Source: a virus
DNA length: 48,901 bases
IMG/VR virus record: IMGVR_UViG_3300040801_000836
Location: 1 to 48,901 of that record
Direction: 5' to 3' (one strand)
Position numbers and translations under genes: made by a program. The notes beneath the pieces were generated by a model that had not been told where the DNA came from, made no database searches, and saw only the letters and a program-made list of their open reading frames with translations. Position 1 is the stretch's first letter; each line of letters begins with the position of its first letter. Positions 1 to 48,901 of this stretch are shown piece by piece.

Positions 1-117
1 GACTGACTTACCTTCTTTCCTTAGCCTGTTGATTCTGCGTATCACTTTGGATATGAACAGTAACATGCCTGCCCGGATACGTGGACTCCGCTCTTTCCAC
101 AGTTCAAACAGATCCCC
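1..117. repeat. 117-bp terminal overlap, identical to 48785..48901 (circular closure of the assembly)
   Basis: Base-by-base comparison of the first 117 nt with the last 117 nt shows identity. The overlap lies inside an open reading frame. Confidence 0.95.
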
Positions 118-2409
118 TTCCTCCGACTTCATATTTGCATTAGTAAGCACTGATATAGTCCTGCTCCGCAGATCTTGATTAGATACTACGGGGTTAAGTG
201 CTGTTAGTATCAGCGGTTTCTTTAGTCGTATGCTCTGAATCTTATTCGAGTACAGTACACGGTAGTCATACTGCCACCCTGTTGCAAGCACACATAAATT
301 GTTCTGTTCATCGTCTGATAGCCTGTTAAGGTTATCGAATATTGTTACGTGTCTACCCTTTAATGTCTTCGCCAGTTCCTTGTCAGCATACAGTCTACTG
401 TGTAGATCTGGTGAATCTCTTAGGTTACTCGATGTTGGATCAACCAAGTCTTTAACGAACCCCGCAGTGCTACTCTTACCACAGTTCGAAGCTCCGGTTA
501 TCTGTAGTAGCTGAGCGGTGCCTGTATTCACAACTGCTGTCGTCTGCCATGCAACAACCTCTATCAGATCCAAGTCATCAGATACCGTAGTGAATTTCCT
601 CAGTCCTTCAAGGTACTCTTCAATCAGCCAGTCTTCTTGCATCTCCCCCATTAGCCCCGGCTCAAACTCCAAAGCATCAGCGTCAACAGGGGCAACTAAC
701 GTGTTAGTTGTGTCCTTCCACAGCACAGGTGCAGTTATAGAAGGTATTACCCTAACTCCATTCTCGTCCACTACAGCAGTCTGCATCGGTTGATCGATAG
801 CACTTCCCATGTTGAAATACGTTGTGTGCTTATCATCTACCAGTTCTGTATAGCATCTGTTCTCTATCGGCGCTACTTTAAATGGGTTACGATAGTCCTC
901 CTTCCTTACTACGATAAGACGTATGACGTCCTTATCAAACCCTCTCGGCATGTTGTTCCCCATCATACCGAACAGTACCCCGTATATGTCATCCTCAATG
1001 CCATCAGCTATGGACTTGAGACTATACCCTTGATCGTGTTCAATCATGCAATACATACTACTATCAGACTTACCAATGTACCACTTGAATTTGTCTATCA
1101 CATCTTCAAGAACCAACTCAAGGTCATACTTCTCCTTGGCTGCGGTGCCTGCTGCTTTCTCTAAATCAGCTACAGATACAGTACCCCTAAGATCCCGCTT
1201 GATTATGGTCCGTATGCTTGCCCACTTTTCCGGTGCGCTTAGCTTTATATTCTGTATAGCCTCAAGACAAGGCTTCATAAATAGTACGGAAGCAGTGGCA
1301 CCTGTCTTGATTGCAGCTATCGCATCGGTTATCTCTTTGGTATCCTTATCTGCCTGCTCTCCAAACTTCTTGGCAACAGCAGTGGTCAGGTAACCCTTGA
1401 CCTTTTCTCTTGTGTAAAGATCTTTATCCGCTTGGTCACCGCGTACACCATGCTTATTGATAGCGGCCCACATCTTACTGTATACCCTGTTGATGTGGTA
1501 CACAAGATTGTCTGTTACTTCAGTGTCACCTACTTCTTGAACCAATTGAGCGCAGGCTCTATATGTAGGCTCATTTATTCCGAGTTCGGCTGAGCCTGCC
1601 ATCTCAATTGTTTTTTCCCACGACGAGCCGATAGGTATATGATTCGTGGTTCCCACACTAGCAGCAGCATAAGGATCATTCCCTAGTGCAGCAGTTGCGG
1701 TTTTAAAATGTTCCAGCAAGTCAGCCTTCCTAACATAAGGTGAAAGGTGGTCACAATGCAGGGTCAATCTAACTTTAGATAACAAGGTATCTTGAAAGTC
1801 TAGGCATATCCTTTTAGATATGTAGTCAGGCTGCACTTGCCGGAACAAACTATAATCTATTTTATATGTAGGGTTAAGCTTGTTATGCTCATAGCCCCAC
1901 TTGTGTAAATCCTCTAGTGGTACTGGTTCATCTAACAAGAAATAGATGTGTGCTCTTAATGTCTTCTCACTCCATGCACTGCTCGATAACATGCAGACGA
2001 ACTGAACATCTTTGAAAGCTGACAGTTTCATCTTGTCAACTAACATGTTAGTTACAGTCTTAGCTAAGTCCTCTTTAGTGAGGATCGAATAGCCATCTGG
2101 AACAGGCCAGCTATCCGCATCCAGCAATATTAGATTAGTCTCGTCACAGGTAAAGTTCTCTTTCTTTCTACGCGCCGGTTGTGGTAGTCCGGGTACAGGT
2201 CTGCCGTATATCCTAAAAGCTTTCTTGTCTTCACACTTTTTTAACAGTCCATATAGCTCTGCTGCACTGTTAACTGTGGTAGTAGCATGTTTGAAAAGCT
2301 TTCCTAGCTCATAGCTACTGACAACTTTAAGCTCTCCAGACTTCTTAGAAAATACTTTGGCAGTTGACGCACCTGACCATACTGGCCGCAAAATCGTAAT
2401 ATTTGACAT
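1..2409 (-). CDS. DNA primase-polymerase / SF3 (D5/P4-type) helicase fusion, N-terminal and central part. The ORF leaves the window at base 1 and resumes at 48784, about 965 codons in total.
   Basis: ATG at 2409..2407. My translation finds no stop in this minus frame down to base 1, and the ORF is missing from the track because it has no in-window stop. It is in frame with ORF 48296..48850 through the overlap (2409-66 is divisible by 3). Walker A ITGASNCGKSS lies around 472..510. LILLDADS and RAHIYFLLDE near the N-terminus resemble primase-polymerase motifs. Confidence 0.7.
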   Translation of the reverse strand, partial: MSNITILRPVWSGASTAKVFSKKSGELKVVSSYELGKLFKHATTTVNSAAELYGLLKKCEDKKAFRIYGRPVPGLPQPARRKKENFTCDETNLILLDADSWPVPDGYSILTKEDLAKTVTNMLVDKMKLSAFKDVQFVCMLSSSAWSEKTLRAHIYFLLDEPVPLEDLHKWGYEHNKLNPTYKIDYSLFRQVQPDYISKRICLDFQDTLLSKVRLTLHCDHLSPYVRKADLLEHFKTATAALGNDPYAAASVGTTNHIPIGSSWEKTIEMAGSAELGINEPTYRACAQLVQEVGDTEVTDNLVYHINRVYSKMWAAINKHGVRGDQADKDLYTREKVKGYLTTAVAKKFGEQADKDTKEITDAIAAIKTGATASVLFMKPCLEAIQNIKLSAPEKWASIRTIIKRDLRGTVSVADLEKAAGTAAKEKYDLELVLEDVIDKFKWYIGKSDSSMYCMIEHDQGYSLKSIADGIEDDIYGVLFGMMGNNMPRGFDKDVIRLIVVRKEDYRNPFKVAPIENRCYTELVDDKHTTYFNMGSAIDQPMQTAVVDENGVRVIPSITAPVLWKDTTNTLVAPVDADALEFEPGLMGEMQEDWLIEEYLEGLRKFTTVSDDLDLIEVVAWQTTAVVNTGTAQLLQITGASNCGKSSTAGFVKDLVDPTSSNLRDSPDLHSRLYADKELAKTLKGRHVTIFDNLNRLSDDEQNNLCVLATGWQYDYRVLYSNKIQSIRLKKPLILTALNPVVSNQDLRSRTISVLTNANMKSEEGDLFELWKERSPRIRAGMLLFISKVIRRINRLRKEGKSV
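694..709. repeat. Palindrome copy, 2-nt spacer (GT), intragenic
   Basis: AACTAACGTGTTAGTT, read as TNTLV in the primase-helicase ORF. Confidence 0.95.
2038..2053. repeat. Palindrome copy, 2-nt spacer (AT), intragenic
   Basis: AACTAACATGTTAGTT, read as TNMLV in the primase-helicase ORF. Confidence 0.95.
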
Positions 2410-2425
2410 GAAGAAAAGACCTTAT

Positions 2426-2440
2426 CTCTAACTGTTAGTT
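2426..2440. repeat. Degenerate palindrome copy, 1-nt spacer
   Basis: CTCTAAC-T-GTTAGTT, in the leader between promoter 2471..2499 and the primase start. Confidence 0.6.
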
Positions 2441-2470
2441 GAATCCCCCCTGTACACTGTGACAAGACTA

Positions 2471-2499
2471 ATCTTACTACGAAATTTTATTTTTGTCAA
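2471..2499 (-). promoter_or_regulatory. Sigma70-like promoter for the primase-helicase gene (TTGACA-17-TAAGAT)
   Basis: On the minus strand the -35 TTGACA is at 2499..2494 and the -10 TAAGAT at 2476..2471, with a 17-nt spacer. It has the same -10 as the promoter at 7974..8002. The -35 overlaps the TGA stop of the upstream ORF. Confidence 0.55.
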
Positions 2500-3017: not shown

Positions 3018-3283
3018 TCGTCATCCTCCTTTACTATGCAGTCGCTCTTGATAGTCCCATCAGGCTCAATTATACAGCCGTCCGGCTTCTGCCCTTTAAT
3101 TGCTCTGGCCTTGCCAACAGTATCGTTATAAAGCTTAATCAGTTCATCTCTGGTATAAGCAAGATCTTCATAAGATCTACTGTTCAGTTCATCGAATGAT
3201 TGCCTGCTGTACCCAAGTTTCTCACGCAGCAACATGATATTACTGATAGTAGCCATCTTAACTAACTCGTTTGTCATGCTCAT
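3014..3283 (-). CDS. Hypothetical protein (89 aa)
   Basis: Track ORF with SD AAGGTG 5 nt before the ATG. It contains a degenerate palindrome copy read as TNELV. Confidence 0.7.
   Translation of the reverse strand: MSMTNELVKMATISNIMLLREKLGYSRQSFDELNSRSYEDLAYTRDELIKLYNDTVGKARAIKGQKPDGCIIEPDGTIKSDCIVKEDDE
3260..3275. repeat. Degenerate palindrome copy, 2-nt spacer, intragenic
   Basis: AACTAAC-TC-GTTTGTC, read as TNELV in ORF 3014..3283. Confidence 0.5.
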
Positions 3284-3463: not shown

Positions 3464-3477
3464 AGTGTCTCCCTTGT

Positions 3478-3493
3478 GGGGGCCGAAGCCCCC
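3478..3493 (-). other. GC hairpin with C(UUCG)G tetraloop in the minus-strand RNA
   Basis: The minus strand reads GGGGGC-UUCG-GCCCCC. It lies between palindrome 3497..3511 and the SD of the next gene. Confidence 0.6.
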
Positions 3494-3496
3494 GTT

Positions 3497-3511
3497 AACT
3501 AACAGTTAGTT
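3497..3511. repeat. Palindrome copy, 1-nt spacer, intergenic
   Basis: TAACTAACAGTTAGTTA. Overlaps the TAA stop of 3510..4667. Confidence 0.95.
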
Positions 3512-4667: not shown

Positions 4668-4678
4668 AAGTCCTCCAT

Positions 4679-5844: not shown

Positions 5845-5860
5845 AGTGTGACCTCTATGT

Positions 5861-5941
5861 TTAGATTGATACCATTGCGGCGATGACGCACAATGCGACA
5901 ACTGCCAGCGTTATTACTGCTTTTATTATGTCAACTAACAT
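5861..5941 (-). CDS. Possible 26-aa hydrophobic micro-ORF that starts at the ATG inside a palindrome copy
   Basis: My translation is MLVDIIKAVITLAVVALCVIAAMVSI. AAGGG lies 8 nt upstream, and the ATG is the centre of AACTAACATGTTAGTT. Very short, so speculative. Confidence 0.25.
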   Translation of the reverse strand: MLVDIIKAVITLAVVALCVIAAMVSI

Positions 5942-5948
5942 GTTAGTT
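5933..5948. repeat. Palindrome copy, 2-nt spacer (AT), intergenic
   Basis: AACTAACATGTTAGTT, after the stop of 5956..6333. Confidence 0.95.
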
Positions 5949-6355: not shown

Positions 6356-6370
6356 AACTAACTGTTAGTT
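6356..6370. repeat. Palindrome copy, 1-nt spacer, in the leader of the leftward operon
   Basis: TAACTAACTGTTAGTTA, 23 nt upstream of the ATG at 6333. Confidence 0.95.
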
Positions 6371-6416: not shown

Positions 6417-6431
6417 AACTAACTGTTAGTT
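6417..6431. repeat. Palindrome copy, 1-nt spacer, in the leader of the leftward operon
   Basis: AACTAACTGTTAGTT, about 30-45 nt downstream of the predicted start of promoter 6468..6496. Confidence 0.95.
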
Positions 6432-8037: not shown

Positions 8038-8052
8038 AACTAACTGTTAGTT
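8038..8052. repeat. Palindrome copy, 1-nt spacer, intergenic
   Basis: TAACTAACTGTTAGTTA, 36 nt upstream of the -35 of promoter 7974..8002. Confidence 0.95.
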
Positions 8053-8060
8053 AGCCTATC

Positions 8061-8274: not shown

Positions 8275-8289
8275 AACTAACTGTTAGTT
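8275..8289. repeat. Palindrome copy, 1-nt spacer, ORF-poor region
   Basis: TAACTAACTGTTAGTT. Confidence 0.95.
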
Positions 8290-8727: not shown

Positions 8728-8743
8728 AACTAACTTGTTAGTT
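8728..8743. repeat. Palindrome copy, 2-nt spacer (TT), ORF-poor region
   Basis: AACTAACTTGTTAGTT. Confidence 0.95.
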
Positions 8744-9026: not shown

Positions 9027-9041
9027 AACTAACAGTTAGTT
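9027..9041. repeat. Palindrome copy, 1-nt spacer, ORF-poor region
   Basis: TAACTAACAGTTAGTTA. Confidence 0.95.
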
Positions 9042-10039: not shown

Positions 10040-10069
10040 CATAATTCAACAGCCAAGCTAACTAACAGT

Positions 10070-10084
10070 TAGTTGACTACAACC
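10070..10084. repeat. Palindrome copy, 1-nt spacer, intergenic
   Basis: TAACTAACAGTTAGTT, after the TerS candidate. Confidence 0.95.
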
Positions 10085-10378: not shown

Positions 10379-12201
10379 TCATGGGACGAATAATAGCTAA
10401 GGCTTGCTCTAGAACGGAGCCGCGTGCGGCGAACAGACCCAGATCCTTACTTCCCCTGCCGAATAAGGGGGATATCCTCGCACTTTTCCGTGGATCAGAC
10501 CCAACAGGTGAATATCTAATCGATTCCCGCCCGTTGCAGGAAGGTGATACAAGGAATAACTTAAATGTCTATGGGTATACTGTTGATTGGGATGGGGCTA
10601 CCTCCAGTGTTTTGGCTTACCCGATAGTATTGACAGGCGACTTCGAGATAGAAATAGTTACTCTGCTTACTAACTATACTTCCAACAGAGCATGGCTTGG
10701 AAATTCAACAGTTGATGAGGGGATACTAAGAGTAGAAACATCTGGAATAATTAAGGTGTTTATAGATGGTTCTAGTTTCGCACTGACCTCTTTAGTAGTA
10801 CCTTTAGGCGAGTTGTTTAAGTTAACTATAGCGAGAGAGGGTGATGTCTATTCTTCCAAGTTACTAAACCTAGAGACAGACGAGTTACAGTCAAGGTCTG
10901 ATACGGTAGTAAAGGCTGACCCTACCTTTAATATCTCTGAGATAGGATGCAGATCTGATGGTACATTAGATAGATTCGATGGACAGATACACAGAGTTTC
11001 TGTTAAAGACGAGAGTAATCAGACAGTGCTTGATGTAATCCTCGAATCCGCCAAAGACTCCACCGAACCCTACGCCTACGACAGAGTAACAGGTCAGCAA
11101 GTAACATTTGATGGCTATACAGTCTCTCCGTGGAAAGCTAGGAAGTCTGGAAGTCTCTTGCTTGCTTGTGGATTCGTTGATAATGATCCTGTTAATCTAG
11201 GATACATTCCAGCATCTCTAACTAACCCGTTAGTTGATCCTTTCGGCAACGCACTGACCCATCTTCCAGGCAAGGTATATCCAGACAGTCATATAGAACT
11301 GGAAGCACCCGATAGCGCTGAGTTGCTTGCTGCTGATACTGAGAGTCAGTTGGCTGAAGAGCTTATTAAAGATCCAGGGTTCGATGGATTGGGATGGTGG
11401 CTGGAGACTGTCTCAGCAGAGATAAGCGGTGGGAAGTTAAATGTTACTGACTCTGCCACAGGGGCGCAAGGTGTTAATAAGTCTTTTGTACTAGAGGTAG
11501 GTAAGTTCTATCAGATAGGTATAGATGTTGATTATCTATCTGAGGGGAATATCAAAGTGTATTGTGGTATAGGTTCTGTTGAAACAATAGGCTTAGGACA
11601 GAACCAAACCTTTATACTTGAGTGCATAGGAGATCACGTTTTCAGGGTCTATGGCAGTGTTGGAGGTCAATCCTATACTGTAGATAATGTATCAGTACGT
11701 GAAGTCAAAGATCCAATCAACCTATGGTACGAGGACAACGAGGATAAGAATGTTGTGCTTCCTTCTGACTTAGCGAACTTATGGAACAATCCTACCGCTA
11801 CTGCTCCTGATCCTAATATAGCTACATGGGATCAAGCTACTGGTATAGGTAGGATAGTAGCCACTATTGGCGACAATACTTACCTCAGCGTTCCTGGGGT
11901 TGTTGAAATAGGGGCTACATATAGAGTCAAGTATGAGGTACTTGAGACAGATGGAGGATCTTTAGCTCTTACGACTTTAGAAGGATATGTTCTTACAGAA
12001 TCCGTAGAGATAGATCTTGTAGCTAATGACGATTACCTACAGATAAAGAGGTCTACACTCTGCGATGTTACTTTCAAGTTATCTATAACTCGTTCGTATA
12101 ACGACCAATACTTTTACGGTGAACGAGCCTTGTTGATTTTTAAAGAGCCACGCACAACAGAGAACGCAGCAAAAGCAACAACATACGTTAAACCTTTTTA
12201 G
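10375..12201 (+). CDS. Large LamG/concanavalin-like plus CBM-like repeat protein (608 aa), putative glycan-binding
   Basis: GTGA overlap with the upstream gene. The N-terminal half looks like a lectin/LamG jelly-roll, and two C-terminal segments resemble CBM4/9-type modules (my reading, not searched). Contains an in-frame palindrome (TNPLV). Confidence 0.7.
   Translation: MIMGRIIAKACSRTEPRAANRPRSLLPLPNKGDILALFRGSDPTGEYLIDSRPLQEGDTRNNLNVYGYTVDWDGATSSVLAYPIVLTGDFEIEIVTLLTNYTSNRAWLGNSTVDEGILRVETSGIIKVFIDGSSFALTSLVVPLGELFKLTIAREGDVYSSKLLNLETDELQSRSDTVVKADPTFNISEIGCRSDGTLDRFDGQIHRVSVKDESNQTVLDVILESAKDSTEPYAYDRVTGQQVTFDGYTVSPWKARKSGSLLLACGFVDNDPVNLGYIPASLTNPLVDPFGNALTHLPGKVYPDSHIELEAPDSAELLAADTESQLAEELIKDPGFDGLGWWLETVSAEISGGKLNVTDSATGAQGVNKSFVLEVGKFYQIGIDVDYLSEGNIKVYCGIGSVETIGLGQNQTFILECIGDHVFRVYGSVGGQSYTVDNVSVREVKDPINLWYEDNEDKNVVLPSDLANLWNNPTATAPDPNIATWDQATGIGRIVATIGDNTYLSVPGVVEIGATYRVKYEVLETDGGSLALTTLEGYVLTESVEIDLVANDDYLQIKRSTLCDVTFKLSITRSYNDQYFYGERALLIFKEPRTTENAAKATTYVKPF
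11220..11235. repeat. Palindrome copy, 2-nt spacer (CC), intragenic
   Basis: AACTAACCCGTTAGTT, read as TNPLV in the 608-aa ORF. Confidence 0.95.
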
Positions 12202-12215: not shown

Positions 12216-12230
12216 AACTAACTGTTAGTT
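12216..12230. repeat. Palindrome copy, 1-nt spacer, intergenic
   Basis: TAACTAACTGTTAGTTA, followed by SD AAGGAG. Confidence 0.95.
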
Positions 12231-13442: not shown

Positions 13443-13700
13443 ATGAGTACGTTGTTGATGGTTTTACAGATTATACCAGCGCTATTGGAAATCATATCTT
13501 CAGTTGAGAAGATGATCCCTGAAGGGAACAAAGGCAAGGAGAAACTTGGCATGGTCAAGGATATTGTTGCTGTTTCCTATGAAGGGGCTAATGAGATAAT
13601 GCCGCAGGTTGAGAAGATAGTTAATATTGCAGTCCACACGGCGAACAAAACCGGCGCGTTCAAGAAGCCACTGCCGCCCCCGGCCCCACCTTGTAACTAA
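13443..13700 (+). CDS. Small protein with an N-terminal hydrophobic helix (85 aa), faintly LL-H holin-like
   Basis: I prefer the ATG at 13443 (SD AAGGAG 5 nt upstream) over the track's GTG at 13437. The TAA stop lies inside palindrome 13695..13710. Confidence 0.65.
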   Translation: MSTLLMVLQIIPALLEIISSVEKMIPEGNKGKEKLGMVKDIVAVSYEGANEIMPQVEKIVNIAVHTANKTGAFKKPLPPPAPPCN

Positions 13701-13710
13701 CAGGTTAGTT
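13695..13710. repeat. Palindrome copy, 2-nt spacer (AG), at the gene junction before terL
   Basis: TAACTAACAGGTTAGTTA. Contains the upstream TAA stop, and the AGGT centre lies 9 nt before the terL ATG. Confidence 0.95.
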
Positions 13711-15304: not shown

Positions 15305-15320
15305 AACTAACAGGTTAGTT
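15305..15320. repeat. Palindrome copy, 2-nt spacer (AG), immediately before an ATG
   Basis: AACTAACAGGTTAGTT-ATG. Confidence 0.95.
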
Positions 15321-29600: not shown

Positions 29601-32600
29601 GCAACTACATTGCCCTTGAAACATTCAGGGATCAGTTGTCTGCACTGGTGAAGTCACAGTATCAAGCAGGCGCACAGACAGGCAATCATACGATAAGTAT
29701 GGATATGCCCATATCTGGCTTTAAGAAGGATACCGAACTCATAGCCTATGGTATGACCAGTAGGAGTTTTCAAGAGTGGTTGGCTACTGTTAACATGCGT
29801 ATGATAGACGCACACGGAATGTCTAAGCCTGTTAGGGCTATAACTAAATTCGTTCGTGTCATTCGTGCTTTACTAGGTATCCCTGCAAGTGAGGAAACCG
29901 CTCTTATTCGCGTAATGCAGTTCGGTGAGATATTCATGCGAACACAGAAAGAGCATACCGCCAAACAAAAGGCCGCTTCTACTGCTAGTGGTATAAAGAA
30001 GACGGATCAAGTAGAGTGGGAAGGAGAGGCAACTAACACGTTAGTTGAAGCTGAGAAAGCGGAGAAGGCACGTAAGGAGCCAACGGCTGATGCACTTGTT
30101 GAACGTATAAAGAAAGAGCGTGAAGCAAGAGAACGCGCAATGGCCGCTTACGATGCAGCTATAGCCAGTAAGATCAAAGCAGGCACGACTGCCAAGGTTG
30201 CCGCTAGGATACAGCAGAAAGCTATGGTCCGGGCAATGAAGGCGTTGTTCGACGCTGGTGACCTACACGGTTACCGAGTTGCTAGGGACCACTTCAAGGC
30301 CATTCTTGCAAGGGAGAGAGCAAAGGCTGCGGCTGTAGCTAAGCACAAAGCCCTTCGTAAGAGTATAATGACGAAGCTCGAAAAGGGTATGCCAAGTAAG
30401 ATACACGGCAAGCTTTACGTGAAGATCAGTCCAGAGATGTCCAAGTTGTTCCGTGACGTACTGAAGGTTCTTCACCCATTGAAAACCAATAAGCAGATAC
30501 GAGAACTTTATGATATCAGAATGGGAGGACAATTCGACGCGTATGCAATGGCTAAAACGGACGCTGATTATATTATTAATACTTTTCTCGATGGGGCTGT
30601 TTCACGTAACGCATCAGGTGTCAGAATTTTGGAGAACCTTAACGAAGCGTTAGCCCTGCTACTCTCCGGTGAATCTCAGCTTTCTCCGATGATGAAGAAG
30701 AAGGCCGAGATAGACAGGATGCGTCCTGAGATAATTAACAGTATTAATGGTGGTAACGTTGTCGATTCACCACTTACGGATACTAAGCTCTTGCACGAAC
30801 AACGTAAGAAGCAGAAGACGCGGCGTGAGTATTGGGCTACGTGGACTGTAGGACACAAGAATGTCTTTGGTCTTACGGGATTGATAAAGCTTGCCACAAG
30901 CTACACCCCCGGTTCTCAGTCTGCACTGTCTAAGATGTGTAACTTCTTCGAAGCGAAACAGCGGAAGATGACTCGTATCCGCGAGGAACAGGCGAAGATA
31001 ATGGAGATGTATATCCGTTCATTTGGTCTGGATAATAAGAAGACTAAGTATGCCCTATTCAAGAAGTGGGCTGAAGACACAAAACCTGTTCACCGTATTG
31101 CTGGTGTTGATATGGGCAAAGCACAAGTGCGTCAGATATGGATGTACATGCAAGACCCAACGCTAACTAACAGGTTAGTTATGCAGTTTATGGACCCTAA
31201 AGATAGGGCTAAAGTAAAGAAAGATCTTACGGATGAAGAGATTGATGAGATAGAAGCCGCCGCCTTAGAGAACTACGATAACATTGTTAACCAAGTTAAC
31301 GAGATTCTGACCGACGAAGACAAGGCTTTTGCTCAATTGCTCATGGGATATTTCAATAGCGATGAGCAGTACGAATATGTTAATCGTGTACATAAGATTG
31401 TTGCAGGACTTGAGCTAGGCAGGATAGAGGGCTACGTTCCTATCCGTGCAGAGAACTACCTCAACATAACTGAGCAGTTGGACAGAGGGCATGAAGCATC
31501 ACAGTTCAAACATGATGACTATATCAGGAAAACCCCTCAATCAGCTAAGAGTATACGTGAACGAGCCAAGAACGCTGACAGGTTCCAGATGCGATTCGAT
31601 GGAGACATAACGCTATTCAATTCTTACACCGAAGAGATGGCACACTATGTGAACTTTGCGGAACAGGCTCAGCTTGTTAAGATTGCGATTGAGGATAAGG
31701 ATATCCGTAGGGCTATTGAAGTAGAATATGGCAGGGACGTGTACAATTCTATAGTTAGCGCCGTTGAAGATGTGCTTGCAGATGGTATACATAACCAGAA
31801 GCAGTACCCTCTAATGGATAAGTTTAGGGCTACATTTGTTCGTTCAACAATTGGAATGGCTACCAGTGTATTCTTAAAACAGCACATTTCTATAGTGCAG
31901 TATGCTCAACATATGCCTGTTTTAGATTTTACAAAGGGCATGGCCGTGTTTTGGAAAAATCCTATTGACAATTTCTCTGAAATGATGGATACTGATTTCA
32001 TCAAAAACAGAAAGAACTCAATGGACAGGGACATGAAACAGACTGCTACCTCTGCTGAGTATAAGCGGTGGCGATTGAATCCAACACTGTCTAATCTTAT
32101 AACTCTTAACGTCACTCTTGGCGATTCAAGTGCCATCATCCAAGGTGCATGGGTATACAAAGAGTATCTGAAGACACAAACCAACCCTGCAACGGGGAAG
32201 AAGTATACCAACAAGGAAGCACTGGCCGAAGCTTTCAATAAGTCTAATGCTACACAACAGTCCGGTGACATGCAGGAGTTGTCATGGACTCAGCGCGGTG
32301 GCTCTGCAATGCAGTTAATGACCATGTACTCCACTGGTCCTATACAGGCGCTACGGCAGGAGATCGAAGCAGTGAGAGACTACGCGGCGGGCAATATAAG
32401 CAAGGCGCAGTTGCTCAAGACCCTTGCTATCTACCACGTAATCGTACCTTCAATGTTCGCTATGGTGTCTGGACTTATGACCGGAAGGGAAGAGGATGAT
32501 TGGTTGAAGGCTCAGCTATTAGCGGCGGCACTTGGTCCTTTCAGCGCAATCTACGGAGTTGGTGAAGTTATCAGTAATGTCACAAGTGGGCTGCTTGGGA

Positions 32601-32865: not shown

Positions 32866-33981
32866 ATGACAGTTTCAGCACAGTCACCTGTTGTTACTAG
32901 GGTGTACACTGGTCCCGGCGACTACGATTTTGACTTCTTAGTTTATGATGTAGCGAACTTGGAGATGACAATCGTAGATACGTCTGGTGTTCCTCAAACA
33001 TTAACCGTAGCTAACTACTCAGCAGTTACCTTGTCTCCGAATCCCGGTGGCACCGTTACGATTACCGATGCTCTTGGTGTGTTGCCTTTAGGTACTCTGT
33101 ACATTCGTCGCACACTGGCGTACCAGCAGACTATCGATTGGATCAATAACGAAGCGTTCAACATGGAGTTGCTTGAACGTTCGCAAGATCAGATGGTTAT
33201 GATGCTACAGCAGATTGACAGTATTGTAAAGGATGCTATGCTGCTGAGTACGTGGCGGGGTACTTGGGTTACACCTGTAACCTACAACGCCAAGGATCTT
33301 GTTGTTGCACCTAATGGTAACTGGTACGCCTGCTTAGAGACACACACTTCGGATGACTTCACTGCTGACTTAGCGGCGGGTTATTGGGTACTGGCTCTTG
33401 ATCTTGCAGCGGTAACTGCACTGAGGGACGAGTGCCTTGGCTACGCAGAAGACACAGCAGCCGACCTTGTACTGACAAATGCTGATGTGGTACTTACCCA
33501 CGCAGACGTTGTTCTCACTAATGCAGATGTGGTACTTACCCACGCTGATGTTGTCCAGACTGGTCTTGACCGCGCTGCTACTGCCGCTGATTTGGTGCTG
33601 ACTAATGAAGATGTCGTTACAACTCAAGGGCTTGTTGATTCGATTGACACACCAACTATTCTCCGTAAGGATGCAGACACAGGTGCCGCAATACTTCCAC
33701 CGGGAACAACAGCACAACGTCCTTCTGTACCATCTGAAGGTATGCTCAGGTACAACACAGATCTGAAATCTTTTGAGGGTTACGCCGATGGGGTGTGGGG
33801 TACTGTTGGTGGTGGTGCTTCCGGTGCAGTCCAGAACCCTGTATTCTACGAGAACGACACTAACGTAACTGGCGACTACACCATTACTACTGGCAAGAAC
33901 GCTGTGAGTGCAGGACCGATTGAGATAGACGATGACGTAACCGTGACTGTTCCTGATGGCTCAGTCTGGACAGTGGTGTAA
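32866..33981 (+). CDS. Tail fibre protein (371 aa)
   Basis: Heptad ADVVLT(N/H) repeats. C-terminal LPPGTTAQRPSVPSEGMLRYNTDLKSFEGY is a segment widespread in phage fibres (from memory). Confidence 0.75.
   Translation: MTVSAQSPVVTRVYTGPGDYDFDFLVYDVANLEMTIVDTSGVPQTLTVANYSAVTLSPNPGGTVTITDALGVLPLGTLYIRRTLAYQQTIDWINNEAFNMELLERSQDQMVMMLQQIDSIVKDAMLLSTWRGTWVTPVTYNAKDLVVAPNGNWYACLETHTSDDFTADLAAGYWVLALDLAAVTALRDECLGYAEDTAADLVLTNADVVLTHADVVLTNADVVLTHADVVQTGLDRAATAADLVLTNEDVVTTQGLVDSIDTPTILRKDADTGAAILPPGTTAQRPSVPSEGMLRYNTDLKSFEGYADGVWGTVGGGASGAVQNPVFYENDTNVTGDYTITTGKNAVSAGPIEIDDDVTVTVPDGSVWTVV
33478..33561 (+). repeat. 4 x 21-nt tandem coding repeat (NADVVLT/HADVVLT), i.e. 2 x 42 nt
   Basis: Units at 33478..33498, 33499..33519, 33520..33540 and 33541..33561, read directly. 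Confidence 0.85.
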
Positions 33982-33994
33982 CTAACAGTTAGTT
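33980..33994. repeat. Palindrome copy, 1-nt spacer, intergenic
   Basis: TAACTAACAGTTAGTTAAGGAG. Confidence 0.95.
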
Positions 33995-37870: not shown

Positions 37871-37910
37871 ATGGCGCACTAACTAACTGTTAGTTGCGCC
37901 ATTCTTTTTA
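37871..37910. terminator. Bidirectional terminator built around a palindrome copy
   Basis: ATGGCGC-(act)-AACTAAC-T-GTTAGTT-GCGCCAT is followed by TCTTTTTA. It lies between convergent genes (endolysin stop at 37862, minus-strand gene stop at 37908). Confidence 0.6.
37881..37895. repeat. Palindrome copy, 1-nt spacer, core of the bidirectional terminator
   Basis: Flanked by the ATGGCGC / GCGCCAT arms. Confidence 0.95.
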
Positions 37911-38687: not shown

Positions 38688-38702
38688 AACTAACGGTTAG
38701 TT
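38688..38702. repeat. Palindrome copy, 1-nt spacer (G), intergenic
   Basis: TAACTAACGGTTAGTTA, adjacent to SD AAGGAGG on the minus strand. Confidence 0.95.
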
Positions 38703-40184: not shown

Positions 40185-40199
40185 AACTAACAGTTAGTT
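40185..40199. repeat. Palindrome copy, 1-nt spacer, intergenic
   Basis: Overlaps the stop of 40198..40434. SD GGGAGG follows on the minus strand. Confidence 0.95.
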
Positions 40200-40434
40200 A
40201 CTTGTTTATCTTTGTTATCGTGTAACCCATCTGGTTCAGTTCATCAGGCACCTGCATCAGTGATCTTATCTGGTGCTTGTAGGACTCCCCTAATCCTAGC
40301 AGCCTGCACACTTCTTCAACAGGCTCTATCCGTAGCGTGTTGTAGTTCGTCAGGACCACAGCAGCAATGCCCGGTGACTTGCACTTACGCTCAGCCGCCA
40401 GCTCAATTGCTCTTTTCATTTCTTGTATCTTCAT
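40198..40434 (-). CDS. Small protein, possible HTH (78 aa)
   Basis: Track ORF with an ATGA-type overlap with the SNF2 gene. The stop overlaps palindrome 40185..40199. Confidence 0.6.
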   Translation of the reverse strand: MKIQEMKRAIELAAERKCKSPGIAAVVLTNYNTLRIEPVEEVCRLLGLGESYKHQIRSLMQVPDELNQMGYTITKINK

Positions 40435-41837
40435 TTCTTCCTCATTAGTTTCTTGCGGTACTCTCTCAAGTAGTCGAGTGCTTCCGCCTGCTCGATACCT
40501 TTTGTTGTAACTATCTTCAGCATGATGTCATCGATTGTATCTCTCATGCGTAGTACGTGATTGAACACTGTTTCGTACTGACTCCCCCTCCTTCTCAGTC
40601 TGGCTATTAACTGCTCCCACATTTCCAGATCCCACGTCAGAGAGAACCACACAATATCGCAGCCACCCCCTTGCATGTTCATACCGTGGGCTAGTGATGC
40701 AGGATTCGCCATCATCAACGGAACCTTACCCGCCATCCATTCCCTGATCCACTTTGTACCTTCCTTGTCATTGGTCTTGGAGTAGATAGCAGGCACCCTA
40801 TACCCGAAGTGCTTTCTGATAATGTCTACCTCGTACTTGAAGTTGATACCTACTAACAGGTTACCTTGCACCCCTTCCATCAGTTCTTCCAACGCTTTCA
40901 GCTTCACACTATGTATGTTCAGTATACCTTCATCGGTGTAGATAAACCCACCTGACAGTTGCCGTAGCTTCTGTGTTAGTGACTGCTTGTTGTCAAGCTT
41001 CAGGGTAATCTCGTCTAGTAGTTCACTGTCACTAACGTTAGTTACCCATTTAGTTTCAAGCTCATGGTAAGTTTTCCTTGCCTTCGGCGGCAGCTCAAGG
41101 TCAATGATATTGTCCTTCACCCTTGGCAGGCCCACGCCTGTCGTGTCTTCTACCACCAGCACTAGGTCTTTGATCTTATCCAGAACTTTCTTCTTTGCCC
41201 CATGCTTAGGAACCCACAGTCTTTGATCCTTCTGTAACATGTACTCATTTCGAAACGATGTGATACCTGTACCTAGCCTATGCCCACGGTCAAGCAGATA
41301 TATCTGACTCCACAGATTAGCTATCCCATTCGGCTTGGGTGTACCTGTCATAATAAAGATGTATCTAATGTCCCGGCCTATGGCATGAGCCAGCTTCGTC
41401 CTGTTCGAGCCTGCGTTCTTTAGATATGTGGACTCGTCGGAGATAAGCAGATCATACTTAGGTGCATACTCGTCGTAGTGTTGACTCAACCACTGCAATC
41501 CCTCATAGTTTATCAAGGTGATGTCTACTTCATGCGCTTCAGTCTTCAGCTTCTCCAGTTTGTCCGCACCATGCAGAACTGTGTAAGTCAGATCTCTTGT
41601 GTGATTCCACTTCTCTATTTCATCAGGCCATGTCATCGTGGCTACCCTCTTTGGTGCCAGTACCAATGCTCTCCTTACTCTCATGTAGTTGTACATTAAT
41701 TGTTCAGCAGCAGTCAAAGCAGTAACAGTCTTACCTATTCCCATCTTAAATAATATACCACTGCGCGGATTGTCTATCATAAACTTTGCCCCCTCTTCTT
41801 GGCAGGGCAGCGGGTAGTATATCATACTGTCAAACAC
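40431..41837 (-). CDS. SNF2/DEAD-like superfamily 2 helicase (468 aa)
   Basis: Motif I KMGIGKT, motif II LISDESTYLKN, and C-terminal helicase domain motifs. Contains a zero-spacer palindrome variant. Confidence 0.85.
   Translation of the reverse strand: MFDSMIYYPLPCQEEGAKFMIDNPRSGILFKMGIGKTVTALTAAEQLMYNYMRVRRALVLAPKRVATMTWPDEIEKWNHTRDLTYTVLHGADKLEKLKTEAHEVDITLINYEGLQWLSQHYDEYAPKYDLLISDESTYLKNAGSNRTKLAHAIGRDIRYIFIMTGTPKPNGIANLWSQIYLLDRGHRLGTGITSFRNEYMLQKDQRLWVPKHGAKKKVLDKIKDLVLVVEDTTGVGLPRVKDNIIDLELPPKARKTYHELETKWVTNVSDSELLDEITLKLDNKQSLTQKLRQLSGGFIYTDEGILNIHSVKLKALEELMEGVQGNLLVGINFKYEVDIIRKHFGYRVPAIYSKTNDKEGTKWIREWMAGKVPLMMANPASLAHGMNMQGGGCDIVWFSLTWDLEMWEQLIARLRRRGSQYETVFNHVLRMRDTIDDIMLKIVTTKGIEQAEALDYLREYRKKLMRKK
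41030..41043. repeat. Variant copy with zero spacer and one arm mismatch, intragenic
   Basis: CACTAACGTTAGTT, read as VTNVS in the SNF2 ORF. Confidence 0.6.
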
Positions 41838-44838: not shown

Positions 44839-44853
44839 AACTAACTGTTAGTT
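44839..44853. repeat. Palindrome copy, 1-nt spacer, intergenic
   Basis: Lies just upstream of the polymerase SD AAGGA. Confidence 0.95.
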
Positions 44854-47534: not shown

Positions 47535-47550
47535 AACTAACCTGTTAGTT
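47535..47550. repeat. Palindrome copy, 2-nt spacer (AG on the minus strand), immediately before an ATG
   Basis: The minus strand reads AACTAACAGGTTAGTT-ATG (nuclease start at 47534). Confidence 0.95.
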
Positions 47551-47969: not shown

Positions 47970-48000
47970 TGTGTTCTCCCTTGTGGGTTTTAGTTTGTGT

Positions 48001-48015
48001 AACTAACAGTTAGTT
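48001..48015. repeat. Palindrome copy, 1-nt spacer, intergenic
   Basis: GTAACTAACAGTTAGTTAC, between the HTH gene and the next gene. Confidence 0.95.
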
Positions 48016-48020
48016 ACGGT

Positions 48021-48299
48021 TTACAGTCCTGCCAAAAGATCATCAAGATCTTCCGCTTCTTCTGTCTTCTCTTCTTCCATCTCTTCAGGCTCGTCATCTC
48101 TAAGCACCATCTCATTCAAGGTGACAAGGTTACCTGAAAGTTCATTGATCCGTAATGCTACGCCGAGGGGTGCTTCCTTCTCACCACTCATAACCTTTGA
48201 CAATGCCTGTCGGGTTATGTGTATGCCCTCTTCTTCCAGTTGCTTTGCTAGTGCCGTGGCCTTCATGTTCTGTGCCTCACACCAATCGCCTATTCTCAT
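48021..48299 (-). CDS. Cro/XRE-like helix-turn-helix DNA-binding protein with an acidic tail (92 aa)
   Basis: KATALAKQLEEEGIHITRQALSKVMSG fits an HTH. C-terminal EDLDDLLAGL. Confidence 0.7.
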   Translation of the reverse strand: MRIGDWCEAQNMKATALAKQLEEEGIHITRQALSKVMSGEKEAPLGVALRINELSGNLVTLNEMVLRDDEPEEMEEEKTEEAEDLDDLLAGL

Positions 48300-48901
48300 T
48301 CTCCTGCCCTCCGTTGTAAAAGTTTTTCTGTTGGAGAAAATCTCCAGAACCTCTGACCGCTTGTTCGGGTACTATTTACCCTCCATCCTGTTATCTCGTA
48401 TACATCTTGAACACACCTTCCTAACTTCGCACCAAACTGCTTGACGTTTCGTGGTATGTCATAAGCTTCTATCTCTATGTTAACCTTGCACACTGTTACT
48501 ATTGTGCCTGCACGGTCTGATACAAACTCTTTGAAATCGCTGAACAGATCGTGTGGTATAACATTTACCACCTTCGGAACATCAAACAGTTTAGATTCGG
48601 TTATCCAAGCACAAAGCAACGCCACCCAATTGTCTTGAAGTGCTTCGCTTACTTCATCACTTATCTGTCTGGCTAACACAATCTCTTCTTGATCTTCATC
48701 TGATAACAACTCGAACCCCGGAGCTAAATTCATCCTTAACGTCGCCTCTATCTTAGCGTGTATGCCCCATAGCTTACGGTCATTGACTGACTTACCTTCT
48801 TTCCTTAGCCTGTTGATTCTGCGTATCACTTTGGATATGAACAGTAACATGCCTGCCCGGATACGTGGACTCCGCTCTTTCCACAGTTCAAACAGATCCC
48901 C
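48296..48901 (-). CDS. C-terminal part of the primase-helicase ORF (continuation of 1..2409; 48785..48901 duplicates 1..117)
   Basis: The same frame stays open through the overlap. Stop at 48296..48298. ATGA-type overlap with the HTH gene start. Confidence 0.7.
   Translation of the reverse strand, partial: GDLFELWKERSPRIRAGMLLFISKVIRRINRLRKEGKSVNDRKLWGIHAKIEATLRMNLAPGFELLSDEDQEEIVLARQISDEVSEALQDNWVALLCAWITESKLFDVPKVVNVIPHDLFSDFKEFVSDRAGTIVTVCKVNIEIEAYDIPRNVKQFGAKLGRCVQDVYEITGWRVNSTRTSGQRFWRFSPTEKLLQRRAGE

Follow-up and report, generated by a model that had tools for sequence, protein, structure and literature searches.

An uncultured tailed phage carries one short palindrome in 39 perfect copies, evenly spaced at about 1.25 kb, both between and inside its genes. 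The genome was analyzed as a single window of 48,901 nucleotides (IMG/VR record IMGVR_UViG_3300040801_000836). We propose, at roughly even chances, that the palindromes are paired operators, read as double-stranded DNA by a small phage-encoded protein, for which the best candidate is the RptR-like product of 40198-40434.

The palindrome array and its placement

A regular-expression scan for AACTAAC-N(1-2)-GTTAGTT returned the same 39 perfect copies as the earlier note; dinucleotide shuffles gave 0.01 on average and never more than 1. The coordinates listed there were all right apart from a single typing error (10070 for 10060). Its degenerate copies at 2426, 3260 and 41030 were also recovered, and no others were found in the window at up to two mismatches. 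Twenty-two copies have a 1-nt spacer, every one of them intergenic as noted before, and the remaining 17 have a 2-nt spacer (Table 1). Lone arms are nearly absent, since 39 of the 41 AACTAAC and 39 of the 43 GTTAGTT occurrences are paired, and the hexamer TAACTA lies at chance level outside the palindromes (30 observed, 26.5 expected). The 1-nt copies are actually 8+8 repeats, TAACTAAC-N-GTTAGTTA. Read from the sequence, this form closes all six frames with stop codons; the 2-nt form keeps a single frame open on each strand.

The claim that copies stand at nearly every gene junction was borne out: of the 33 junctions wide enough to be usable (14 nt or more between genes), 27 are occupied. The described order of stop codon, palindrome, Shine-Dalgarno (SD) and ATG also holds, with the upstream stop contained or abutted in 15 of the 28 intergenic copies and the next start within 37 nt in 23. 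Most sites lie away from promoters, and classical operator repression is therefore inapplicable.

After correction of gene starts, 11 copies fall within ORFs, in agreement with the earlier count, and those at 15305 and 47535 directly precede real start codons. All 11 are encoded as ACT-AAC-NNG-TTA-GTT. The proteome has 12 TNxLV peptides, and 11 of them use exactly these codons, yet TTA makes up only 14% of Leu codons. No indels accompany the gain of in-ORF sites, at which relatives have similar peptides, and these sites fill regions with no room between genes. With the intergenic copies by themselves a 12.5-kb gap would remain; the 11 in-ORF copies bring the largest gap down to 3.0 kb (P=1e-4). 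The spacing CV in the window is 0.51, compared with 0.96 under random placement. It is 0.34-0.52 in six of eight relatives tested, with 0.67 in contig A and 0.71 in L272, and most clade members tested show even spacing of 1.05-1.7 kb.

Table 1. Palindrome copies and the candidate-binder locus in the window
Feature	Coordinates	Strand	Remarks
2-nt spacer, in primase-helicase ORF (TTNTLV)	694..709	.	same codons in contigs A and B
2-nt spacer, in primase-helicase ORF (VTNMLV), lineage-specific	2038..2053	.	relatives: TVNEI(I/L)V, no indel
degenerate CTCTAAC-t-GTTAGTT, junction upstream of primase gene	2426..2440	.	
degenerate AACTAAC-tc-GTTTGTC, in ORF 3014-3283 (MTNELVK)	3260..3275	.	
1-nt spacer, intergenic, overlapping DUF2201 gene stop codon	3497..3511	.	
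1-nt spacer, intergenic, overlapping AAA gene stop codon	4695..4709	.	
2-nt spacer, intergenic	5933..5948	.	
1-nt spacer, 5' UTR, immediately ahead of SD of gene 5956-6333	6356..6370	.	
1-nt spacer, ~30-45 nt downstream of strong sigma70-like promoter (6496-6468, minus strand)	6417..6431	.	
1-nt spacer, 36 nt upstream of promoter-like site 8002-7974	8038..8052	.	
1-nt spacer, intergenic/regulatory region	8275..8289	.	
2-nt spacer, intergenic	8728..8743	.	
1-nt spacer, divergent junction of the genome's two arms	9027..9041	.	
1-nt spacer, 3' of small terminase gene; left edge of 3.6-kb insertion missing in relatives	10060..10074	.	
2-nt spacer, in 608-aa ORF (LTNPLV)	11220..11235	.	
1-nt spacer, intergenic	12216..12230	.	
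2-nt spacer (AGG), upstream stop included, large-terminase ATG 4 nt on; insertion's right edge	13695..13710	.	
2-nt spacer (AGG), abutting ATG at 15321	15305..15320	.	
2-nt spacer, in portal ORF (ATNELV)	17183..17198	.	common only to L032
2-nt spacer, in protease/scaffold ORF (ATNMLV)	18764..18779	.	same place in 7/7 relatives
1-nt spacer, abutting major capsid gene stop codon	20372..20386	.	
2-nt spacer, in tail tubular B ORF (ATNVLV)	23395..23410	.	kept in L076, L008
2-nt spacer, in 671-aa internal virion protein ORF	24854..24869	.	
2-nt spacer, in 2057-aa ORF	26875..26890	.	
2-nt spacer, in 2057-aa ORF	28162..28177	.	kept in contig B
2-nt spacer, in 2057-aa ORF	30031..30046	.	
2-nt spacer (AGG), then in-frame ATG, in 2057-aa ORF	31165..31180	.	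kept in contig B
1-nt spacer, abutting 2057-aa ORF stop codon	32835..32849	.	
1-nt spacer, abutting stop codon; SD and ATG next	33980..33994	.	
1-nt spacer, abutting stop codon	36348..36362	.	
1-nt spacer, abutting stop codon	36974..36988	.	
palindrome 37881-37895 within GC-rich arms, terminator-like hairpin, convergent junction of two arms	37871..37902	.	
1-nt spacer, intergenic	38688..38702	.	
2-nt spacer, overlapping stop codon	39163..39178	.	
1-nt spacer, overlapping stop codon of 78-aa RptR-like gene	40185..40199	.	
candidate binder, 78-aa, Pfam HTH_73 family, RptR-like fold	40198..40434	-	HMM, AF2, Foldseek
SNF2/ResIII-type ATPase gene	40431..41837	-	stop overlaps candidate-binder start by 4 nt
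degenerate, zero spacer (CACTAAC-GTTAGTT), in SNF2 ORF	41030..41043	.	
1-nt spacer, overlapping stop codon	42432..42446	.	
1-nt spacer, overlapping PolA gene stop codon	42828..42842	.	
1-nt spacer, overlapping stop codon; PolA start 9 nt on	44839..44853	.	
1-nt spacer, overlapping DUF2800 gene stop codon	46178..46192	.	
2-nt spacer, abutting true ATG (47534) of DUF2800 gene	47535..47550	.	
1-nt spacer, intergenic	48001..48015	.	

Conservation among relatives and the form of the signal

The motif or a drifted variant is present in ten related uncultured podovirus genomes. The variants are AACTAAC-N1-2, YRACTAAC-N2, TAACTARC-N-GYTAGTTA and YRACTAC-N3-5, and their common core is YRACTA-N5-7-TAGTYR. 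The sister phages searched contain no palindrome family, and a search of 185,579 species genomes of bacteria and archaea found none either. In a relative at 82% nucleotide identity, 7 of 7 sites are kept and the arms are identical at 98 of 98 nt, with two spacers changed. Comparison with the relatives places many copies at the same position across about 50% protein divergence.

The constrained Y/R flanks show no co-variation between the arms, Watson-Crick pairing being 0.32 and 0.45 against 0.49 and 0.55 expected; for the window-type flank it is 0.59 against 0.57. Of 11 sites in L272, 2 have a Watson-Crick inner pair, and hairpin stability is low, at -2 to -3.4 kcal/mol. Independent flank variation together with weak hairpins favors readout of double-stranded DNA over a hairpin. 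The suggestion that a primase or nuclease recognizes a hairpin or cruciform is thus weakened. In the most specific form of this idea, each palindrome would fold into a hairpin on the exposed, single-stranded lagging-strand template and show the phage's own fusion of AEP-type primase and SF3 helicase (window 1-2421, running on over the contig ends into 48296-48850) where to prime or where to load the helicase. Spacing would then track Okazaki-fragment length, and an inverted repeat would offer the identical signal on both strands. Okazaki fragments measure 1-2 kb, a scale matched by the even spacing with its in-ORF gap filling. The RSF1010 RepB' primase recognizes the ssiA and ssiB hairpins, and phages G4 and phiX174 use hairpin priming signals. 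The spacer/loop length, variable over 3-5 nt equivalents, also fits, as does the restriction of this primase-helicase subfamily, at 38% identity or more, to motif-bearing genomes. We nevertheless consider this reading unlikely, because the constrained flank and inner positions are non-complementary and the stems are A/T-rich. Moreover, L270 has a homologous primase-helicase (27% identity, 843 aa) without palindromes, and the closest pairs in the window, 61, 237 and 299 bp apart, are much denser than priming needs.

Recognition at the RNA level was weighed in the same way. An intercistronic mRNA hairpin, recognized by an RNA-binding protein or nuclease of the phage or its host, might punctuate polycistronic transcripts for processing, 3'-end protection or translational re-initiation between the stop and the next SD. 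The junction layout suits this, and in the ACTAC-type relatives the spacer is frequently the SD itself (ACTAC-AGGAG-GTAGT-tgaaATG). Three genomes have a terminator hairpin at the convergent junction that is capped by the palindrome, each with its own GC arms. In the window this GC-extended hairpin, as described earlier, reaches -10 kcal/mol as DNA and -16 as RNA, and its equivalents lie in contig A (L012:1017) and contig B (L067:5329). However, the 11 in-ORF copies are selected, with gap filling, at positions where mRNA cleavage or a roadblock would be harmful or pointless. Elsewhere the RNA hairpins have little stability (-2.3 to -4.5 kcal/mol), and the window-type ones do not surpass shuffles. 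The coding-strand flank mismatch is A-C rather than G-U, no G-U-compatible or compensatory patterns appear, and the single spacer base has no strand bias relative to transcription. An mRNA function is on this evidence very improbable, and the earlier note was right to doubt a pure RNA-terminator role.

A third possibility is that the repeats are recombination linkers or footprints of tiny mobile elements, supplying short homologies or nuclease/recombinase targets for cassette exchange. Five genes specific to the window form a 3.6-kb block that separates the small from the large terminase gene; its edges lie exactly at the copies at 10060 and 13695, and contigs A and B hold a single palindrome copy there. 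Deletions between palindromes have been reported in cluster O mycobacteriophages (PMC4351075). The insertion agrees with the linker role proposed earlier, but such exchange is likely only a by-product. In-ORF copies came about by substitution, many copies hold their positions across the divergence given above, and a repeat of 15-17 bp gives homologous exchange very little length to work with. Linkers predict neither even spacing nor gap filling, the motif is absent from bacterial genomes, and no transposase or RAYT-like gene was detected. It would be most surprising if this were the primary function.

The candidate binding protein

Sites for a phage-encoded symmetric DNA-binding protein are the best supported of the three roles first proposed. 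Among the three binder candidates put forward with that role, the one at 40198-40434 stands: an HMM of this 78-aa protein matches 10 of 10 motif-bearing genomes and 0 of about 81 related motif-free loci. The other two were rejected. None of the relatives was found to have the Myb-like ORF 38448-38675, and the HTH ORF 48021-48299 turned up only in contig A and one motif-free phage. Pfam HTH_73 (PF24718) is matched by 9 of 12 family members, with a best E of 1.7e-11. The family is very small: a set of 1.84 billion proteins contains about 10 cluster representatives of it. The AF2 model has a pLDDT of 96.6. Its only strong PDB match by Foldseek is RptR (9r2z), with TM 0.72-0.73 and rmsd 2.3 A over 70 of 78 residues, although an E-value of 0.065 is modest for so high a TM-score. 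At the sequence level the two proteins show no similarity. The order of the SNF2 and 78-aa genes, with their overlap, recurs in L181, L182 and L271, and the two may be translationally coupled.

RptR is a repressor, a 79-aa homodimer with the minimal site TAGCTA, which binds single sites poorly and is cooperative on two or more sites, adjacent or separated (PMC12255303). The palindrome arms TAACTA/TAGTTA resemble this hexamer at 5 of 6 positions, a likeness whose chance of coincidence we estimate at a few percent when all registers are considered. Variable spacing had been taken to imply a hairpin; the RptR precedent, with separate dimers on separate hexamers, counters this. The residue after the invariant Tyr in the putative recognition helix is K/R in 4 of 4 ACTAAC-type genomes but also K in 1 of 4 ACTAC-type genomes, and so tracks motif type imperfectly. 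The suggested link between protein and site draws on this fold similarity, on the hexamer resemblance, and on co-occurrence in one clade, effectively a single evolutionary event. Several other genes are equally clade-specific, which counts against the link: the MoxR-like AAA gene (4708-5901), the DUF2201 gene (3510-4667), a 126-aa acidic protein (47589-47969), a 392-aa protein with a Lys/Ala-rich linker (6675-7853), and the window's primase-helicase subfamily.

Proposed mechanism and precedents

We propose that each arm would present one YRACTA hexamer, TAACTA on the left and TAGTTA on the right, and that the predicted target of the 40198-40434 product is the TAACTAACAGTTAGTTA duplex. Two dimers would bind cooperatively, head to head, with hexamer centers 11-13 bp apart. 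This arrangement would explain why only paired arms are enriched, why the spacer varies by 1-2 bp, why the outer Y and R vary independently in each arm, and why invariant arms stand beside drifting spacers and flanks. Within-genome spacer variation over 2 bp is absorbed only by the two-dimer model.

The array would act at the DNA level and require coverage of the whole genome. Sites take nearly all free intergenic slots between a stop codon and the next SD. Where genes overlap or are very long, coding sequence holds the sites instead, by way of the one open frame (ACT AAC NNG TTA GTT), which keeps all but a few gaps within 2-3 kb.

The precedents named in the earlier note were well chosen; the nearest are the palindromes of cluster O mycobacteriophages and the stoperators of cluster A. 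Neither an integrase nor a prophage was detected, which leaves stoperator-like prophage silencing without a known context. By analogy with the cluster A stoperators, the most likely outcome of binding would be genome-wide transcriptional roadblocking or silencing. Alternatively, binding may nucleate a protective or organizing protein coat, or may recruit the adjacent SNF2 motor to specific sites.

Genome organization and the palindrome array

The first and last 117 bases of the window are identical, leaving a unique length of 48,784 bp. Therefore, the window is a complete contig, either circular or terminally redundant (direct terminal repeat). Its G+C content is 46%, and it carries a podovirus-type virion module and a leftward replication arm (see the table). 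The AEP-type primase and SF3 helicase domains were read from sequence motifs, not from a database match. Their gene is split by the contig ends, the right-hand ORF coding for the C-terminal part of a protein of ~965 aa whose orthologues in relatives measure 946–964 aa. The portal is ~31% identical to its best matches, in Bordetella BPP-1-like, epsilon15-like and other podoviruses. Megablast of 8 kb of the window and tblastn of the primase and of a 78-aa protein considered below found no match in GenBank phages, and thus there is no cultured relative. A related-locus search by the portal protein alone returned nothing, an exact-protein lookup of the capsid protein gave no record, and most early-arm ORFs have no annotation in Pfam, PHROGs or NCBIfam. 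The window ORFs showed neither an integrase nor a recognisable repressor domain.

Features of the window and their coordinates
Feature	Coordinates	Strand	Description
Identical ends	1-117; 48785-48901		
Primase-helicase gene	1-2421; 48296-48850	-	AEP-type primase-SF3 helicase fusion
GC-rich hairpin	3465-3496	-	gggggcttcggccccc
GC-rich hairpin	4668-4694	-	gctcccttcggggagc
Terminator of 392-aa gene	6648-6617		strong
392-aa protein	6675-7853	-	
Promoter of 392-aa gene	8002-7974		strong, sigma70-like
Inter-arm repeat cluster	8060-8240; 8360-8480; 8567-8667; 9436-9453		
Small called ORFs	8284-8696		may not be genes
Virion module	~9.6-37.9 kb	+	small and large terminase, T7-type portal, protease/scaffold, major capsid, tail tubular A and B, three internal virion proteins (one of 2057 aa), tail fibres, M15 endolysin
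Insertion between terminase genes	10075-13694		3.6 kb
In-ORF copy 31165	31165-31183		spacer AGG
Tail-fibre paralogues	34006-36349		239, 268 and 278 aa
Terminator-like copy	37871-37902		GC arms, T-run
Myb-like ORF	38448-38675		
78-aa protein	40198-40434	-	candidate binder
SNF2 gene	40431-41837	-	
HTH ORF	48021-48299		
Replication arm		leftward	also DUF2800 nuclease, Enc34-type SSB, family A DNA polymerase, VRR-NUC, SNF2 ATPase, MoxR-like AAA protein, DUF2201 protein

Several other features of this genome were observed. The three consecutive, slightly overlapping tail-fibre paralogues all match the C-terminal part of phrog_2712 and have no counterpart in the retrieved parts of two relatives, contigs A and B. 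Between the arms lies a dense cluster of other repeats, comprising two 34-nt copies of AGTTGTTACGATAT...CACGTAA with a 13-nt CGATAAGTTGTTA pair, tandem and dispersed ATGTGTGACATGT, and two 35-nt copies with AATRATATCACACACTTA inside. It could represent an origin or, alternatively, a second system of regulation. The tetramer CTAG is strongly depleted in the window, with 61 occurrences outside the palindromes versus 198 ± 14 expected from a first-order model.

The earlier note had claimed 39 perfect copies of the inverted repeat AACTAAC-N(1-2)-GTTAGTT. Our scan returned exactly 39, versus 0.01 expected in shuffles, and the listed positions are right except for one (10070, correctly 10060). Since AACTAAC occurs 41 times and GTTAGTT 43 times in the window, the arms are essentially never unpaired; single hexamers outside the palindromes are at chance level (30 observed, 26.5 expected). 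The 22 copies with a 1-nt spacer are actually 8+8 repeats, TAACTAAC-N-GTTAGTTA, and, read from the sequence, this form places stop codons in 6/6 frames. The 2-nt-spacer form leaves one open frame per strand, xxA ACT AAC NNG TTA GTT.

Both transcription arms carry copies, 28 of them intergenic and 11 inside ORFs, the latter as previously counted. The placement described at nearly all gene junctions holds as well, a copy being present at 27 of the 33 junctions where the gap measures 14 nt or more. So does the proposed order of stop codon, palindrome, Shine-Dalgarno sequence and ATG: the upstream stop codon lies within or abuts 15 of the 28 intergenic copies, and the next start follows within 37 nt in 23. 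The single-base spacer has no strand bias relative to the coding strand. Most copies are located away from promoters, and two occupy the 5' UTR that follows a strong sigma70-like promoter.

Two short GC-rich hairpins that lack T-runs each separate a palindrome copy from the Shine-Dalgarno sequence that follows; possibly, they are elements of their own, separate from the palindrome, that stabilise mRNA. In the in-ORF copy 31165, an in-frame ATG directly follows the palindrome. Contig B keeps this arrangement (AGG, then ATG 3 nt later), and copies 13695 and 15305, situated at genuine gene starts, resemble it. Copy 31165 may thus mark an internal translation start of the 2057-aa protein, yielding a C-terminal product of ~550 aa.

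Recombination at the copies, suggested earlier as linkers for module exchange, is visible in one case. A 3.6-kb insertion that separates the two terminase genes (small and large), bounded exactly by copies 10060 and 13695, contains five ORFs, including one for a 608-aa protein, without database matches; contigs A and B lack the block and have a single copy at that place. Such recombination looks like a by-product of the array.

Selection, even coverage and drift across the clade

The identical motif was found in IMG/VR, JGI, ENA and Logan contigs of 45–92% protein identity, namely contig A (IMGVR_UViG_3300037440_000064), contig B (3300037722_000182), L128 and several fragments. Drifted versions occur in more distant relatives (PolA 46–57% identical): YR-ACTAAC-N2-GTTAGT-YR in L271, TAACTA-RC-N-GY-TAGTTA in L272, and YR-ACTAC-N3-5-GTAGT-YR (the ACTAC type) in L181, L182, L183/L266 and L267. 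All variants share the core YRACTA ... TAGTYR, with 5–7 bp from ACTA to TAGT. No palindrome family was found in sister phages sharing virion genes (capsid 63–66% identical), in sisters sharing replication genes (PolA ~37% identical), or in 76 other SNF2-encoding phage loci. The palindrome-free sister contig L270 (JGI Ga0373585_0000035) is deposited at NCBI inside a Desulfobacteraceae MAG, which is a weak hint, and the only pointer, to the host range of the wider group.

The possibility of a host repeat or prophage was rejected from a scan of 185,579 bacterial and archaeal species genomes. The motif-plus-Shine-Dalgarno pattern gave 0 hits, and the 8+8 pattern gave 51 single hits, each lone and unrelated, with no match to any window protein; by estimate, this is no more than chance for a 16-base pattern in 596 Gb. 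Therefore, the motif is not a host repeat, and that collection holds no prophage copies. In the literature, the motif string returned only primers and unrelated matches, among them a Nostoc heptamer repeat that was checked and dismissed as unrelated.

Selection acts on the array at the nucleic-acid level, as illustrated by the peptide TNxLV. It occurs 12 times in the window proteome, where ~0.2 would be expected by estimate from the amino-acid composition. Eleven of the 12 are coded exactly ACT AAC NNG TTA GTT, TTA being only 14% of Leu codons, and the twelfth is the degenerate copy at 3260. Positional conservation, which the earlier note proposed to check, is also observed: one relative, 82% identical in nucleotides over 10 kb, retains 7/7 sites, with 98/98 arm positions unchanged and two spacers changed. 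Several in-ORF sites lie at the same codons in orthologues of only ~50% local protein identity; conserved codons of this kind occur in the protease/scaffold gene (7/7 relatives), tail tubular B, the primase and the 2057-aa protein. Further in-ORF sites are specific to a lineage, and there the relatives code similar peptides (ATDSIV, TVNEIIV) without an indel. Thus, in-ORF sites come about through substitutions where the position permits them, rather than through insertions.

Two further element classes were considered and rejected. REP/REPIN or MITE-like mobile palindromes do not apply because the in-ORF copies align without indels to relatives lacking them; no transposase was found in the window ORFs. 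A Chi site or DNA uptake sequence was rejected because single arms are not enriched outside pairs, and the motif is not repeated within any bacterial genome.

The distribution of copies along the genome is even. Gaps average 1,251 bp and reach at most 3,023 bp, where random placement gives 5,309 bp; the spacing CV is 0.51, compared with 0.96 at random. If only the intergenic copies existed, gaps would reach 12,463 bp, across a block of overlapping structural genes; when the 11 in-ORF copies were placed at random, the observed maximum gap was reached in 0.01% of trials. Among the relatives, mean gaps are 1.05–1.7 kb, and the CV is 0.34–0.52 in six of the eight tested, the others being contig A (0.67) and L272 (0.71). 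In ACTAC-type relatives, only about half of the junctions are occupied and in-ORF copies are proportionally more numerous. Therefore, coverage, rather than junction marking, is the common denominator, and this points to a function of the array at the DNA level.

In the ACTAC-type relatives, many of the 5-nt spacers read AGGAG, and an ATG follows 4–5 nt past the right arm (L183:2754, L183:12109, L266:9380, L266:18735 and L267:14999), so that the Shine-Dalgarno sequence lies within the palindrome. A role of the palindrome in mRNA would fit this arrangement and the order of stop codon, palindrome and Shine-Dalgarno sequence in the window. Such a role leaves the selected, gap-filling in-ORF copies unexplained.

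Probable duplex recognition and a candidate binding protein

The constrained flanks Y and R vary independently between the two arms. Their Watson–Crick complementarity is 0.32 and 0.45 in the ACTAC type, versus 0.49 and 0.55 expected, and 0.59 versus 0.57 expected in the window type. In L272, the position beside ACTA is R in each half-site and is complementary in only 2 of 11 sites. As DNA, the hairpins reach −2 to −3.4 kcal/mol, and as RNA −2.3 to −4.5 kcal/mol; those of the window type are no better than shuffles. These observations argue for each arm being read on duplex DNA. The hairpin or cruciform role suggested earlier is weakened by the missing covariation at variable positions and by the weak stems; the core arms are still complementary, as they must be when both match the consensus, and may form a short stem.

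A related explanation is that the palindrome serves as a hairpin signal for the primase-helicase, and the spacing is indeed on the Okazaki scale. This explanation is weakened by the same covariation tests and weak stems, by a homologous primase in the palindrome-free genome L270, and by sites only 61–300 bp apart. An RNA-terminator role had been judged unlikely except at one copy, and we agree: the typical copies tested reach −2.3 and −3.1 kcal/mol as RNA, and their flanks have no T-run. The exception (37871-37902) is the only copy with GC arms and a T-run, forming a terminator-like hairpin of −15.9 kcal/mol. Contigs A and B likewise have a GC-extended copy at their convergent junction, with other GC arms.

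Gene content was compared for genomes with and without the motif. An HMM built on the 78-aa protein, one of three small DNA-binding candidates named in the earlier note, matched 10/10 of the former and 0/~81 loci of the latter. The conservation of the other two, the Myb-like and HTH ORFs, does not follow the motif. Co-occurrence of gene and motif within one clade counts as a single evolutionary event. The MoxR-like AAA protein, the DUF2201 protein, a 126-aa acidic protein, the 392-aa protein and this primase subfamily are equally clade-specific, in a list that is provisional because the motif-free sisters (Ga0256914_1000302, Ga0373585_0000035 and ERZ2433807 NODE_862) were compared from incomplete genomes. 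In most motif-bearing genomes, the 78-aa gene overlaps the SNF2 stop codon, and in the window the overlap is 4 nt. No hsdM or hsdS was found, and the gene sits in the phage replication module after the SNF2/ResIII-type ATPase gene.

The 392-aa protein is an alternative DNA-binding candidate. It has a long Ala/Lys/Pro-rich, histone H1-like linker (AAKPA..., KKAAxxADKKAA repeats), is conserved in most motif-bearing relatives, and its gene has its own promoter and terminator.

The 78-aa family is tiny, with ~10 cluster representatives among 1.84 billion proteins, and a homologue search returned only the protein itself. Nine of 12 members match Pfam HTH_73 (best E 1.7e-11); a KorB-domain match was marginal and limited to one member (E 0.047). 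A single-sequence AlphaFold2 model was poor (pLDDT 67), making its fold search meaningless, and was replaced by a model built on a 12-sequence alignment (pLDDT 96.6). In Foldseek, the only convincing PDB structural neighbour of this model is RptR (9r2z), with TM 0.72–0.73, rmsd 2.3–2.4 Å over 70/78 residues, probability 1.00 and 14% identity in the structural alignment. A BFVD fold search gave nothing. PDB sequence searches with the 78-aa family and the primase also gave nothing, and 9r2z was missing from the matches (E<=10) of a profile search of PDB sequences with the family.

The RptR repressor, 79 aa long and homodimeric, recognises the 6-bp palindrome TAGCTA through its alpha-4 helices; its binding is poor at one such site and cooperative at two or more, adjacent or separated (Zhang et al. 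2025, PMC12255303; PDB 9r2z). The protein is chromosomal, and its target, through three direct repeats, is a single promoter in a Type I restriction-modification and DarTG island (PMC12255303). The 78-aa protein is similar in length and is predicted to be all-helical, and the arms contain hexamers that may be RptR-like (TAaCTA and TAGtTA). TAACTA and TAGTTA match TAGCTA at 5/6 positions (generally YRACTA), and their centres are 11–13 bp apart in the palindrome. By our estimate, this likeness has a chance of a few percent of being coincidental. In contrast to RptR, the 78-aa protein, without detectable sequence similarity to it, is phage-borne beside an SNF2 ATPase gene, and it is accompanied by 39 inverted-pair sites genome-wide instead of three direct repeats and by no Type I restriction-modification island. 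Residue 53, directly behind the invariant Tyr52 in the putative recognition helix, is K/R in 4/4 ACTAAC-type genomes, but K occurs in 1/4 of the ACTAC type too.

On the basis of this modelled fold, we propose that two dimers of the 78-aa protein may occupy each palindrome, one per arm hexamer. Binding would be cooperative on duplex pairs such as TAACTAACAGTTAGTTA and weak on single hexamers, with no hairpin needed. Such an arrangement would explain the pairing requirement and the 1–2 bp spacer variation, as well as the independent variation in the outer half of each hexamer around an invariant CTA/TAG core.

Comparison with known systems and proposed role

The precedents named in the earlier note proved apt, the cluster O mycobacteriophage palindrome being the closest and the cluster A stoperators the closest functionally explained system. 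The former, 5'-TGTTCGGNNNCCGAACA, is a 17-bp, 7+7 repeat with a 3-bp spacer in 34 copies, found in short intergenic gaps with ~10 copies inside ORFs and none in the host genome; now and then a single substitution destroys a site, and stretches between copies can be deleted (Cresawn et al. 2015, PMC4351075). Its authors proposed a dimeric DNA-binding protein and left the function unassigned (PMC4351075). Our array likewise has 7+7 repeats with invariant arms, a short spacer of variable sequence and more than 30 copies, and it does not occur in bacterial genomes. Conversely, its sequence is not TGTTCGGNNNCCGAACA, the phages are not homologous (a G+C-rich siphovirus there, a 46% G+C podovirus here), and the hosts are unrelated. 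The cluster O spacer is fixed at 3 bp, and its intergenic copies are clustered in one arm. Even spacing, codon-level gap filling, drifted sister-clade variants and a specific candidate protein are not reported in the cluster O paper.

A dispersed palindrome is also found on the IncP plasmid RK2, a ~60-kb mobile replicon, where the 13-bp KorB operator (OB) occurs at 12 places. KorB, a ParB-family CTPase clamp, is an element-encoded global regulator acting at a distance from many sites. Its operators are fewer than ours, unevenly spaced and mostly at promoters.

Cluster A stoperators are, to our knowledge, the sole experimentally explained genome-wide operator array. There are ~24–36 sites per ~50-kb genome, about one per 1.5–2 kb, mostly in short intergenic gaps of both arms, with few in ORFs. 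The phage-encoded HTH repressor, gp71 of L5, reportedly blocks elongating RNA polymerase. The sites are asymmetric, 13–14 bp long, oriented with transcription and bound by a monomer, for prophage silencing. Our array resembles them in its many sites, mainly in intergenic gaps of both arms and with some in ORFs. However, the sites here are symmetric, orientation-free inverted repeats, the window has no integrase, the 185,579 species genomes contain no prophage copy, and the candidate protein is predicted to have another fold.

With stoperators as the best-documented analogue, we infer that the effect of binding may be transcriptional roadblocking. Coat nucleation or recruitment of the adjacent SNF2 motor could be alternative effects. 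It is possible, though rather unlikely, that a lytic podovirus clade has evolved a whole-genome punctuation system, in which RptR-like operator pairs serve a genome-wide DNA transaction. Operator pairs would then be maintained in every free junction and, via codon choice, in long ORFs, so that no stretch beyond ~2–3 kb would be without one, and the array would not be meant for ordinary promoter control. The RptR-like protein would probably be co-translated with the SNF2/ResIII-type translocase, given the gene overlap, and motif and protein would co-evolve between sub-clades. The SNF2 motor might be loaded or arrested at fixed intervals, or the phage DNA might be marked or coated as self against translocating host nucleases, e.g., Type I restriction enzymes, whose systems are under RptR control in bacteria.

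Dispersed phage palindromes, such as that of cluster O, became known ten years ago, and neither a protein nor a function has been assigned to them. The new elements here are the evidence of even coverage, the series of drifted motifs and one specific candidate binder with a predicted RptR fold. Even spacing and in-ORF gap filling provide quantitative evidence of selection on genome coverage, not on promoters, and the recurring TNxLV illustrates that a nucleic-acid signal can impose a peptide on a dozen unrelated proteins. The putative RptR-fold protein and the hexamer-pair sites offer a testable protein–site pair, and the drifted motifs over ten genomes form a natural series for testing co-evolution of specificity. 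If the proposed binding is true, a compact orthogonal operator–repressor pair could serve engineering, and the RptR family, so far a defence regulator of one promoter, would come to include a phage system that acts genome-wide.
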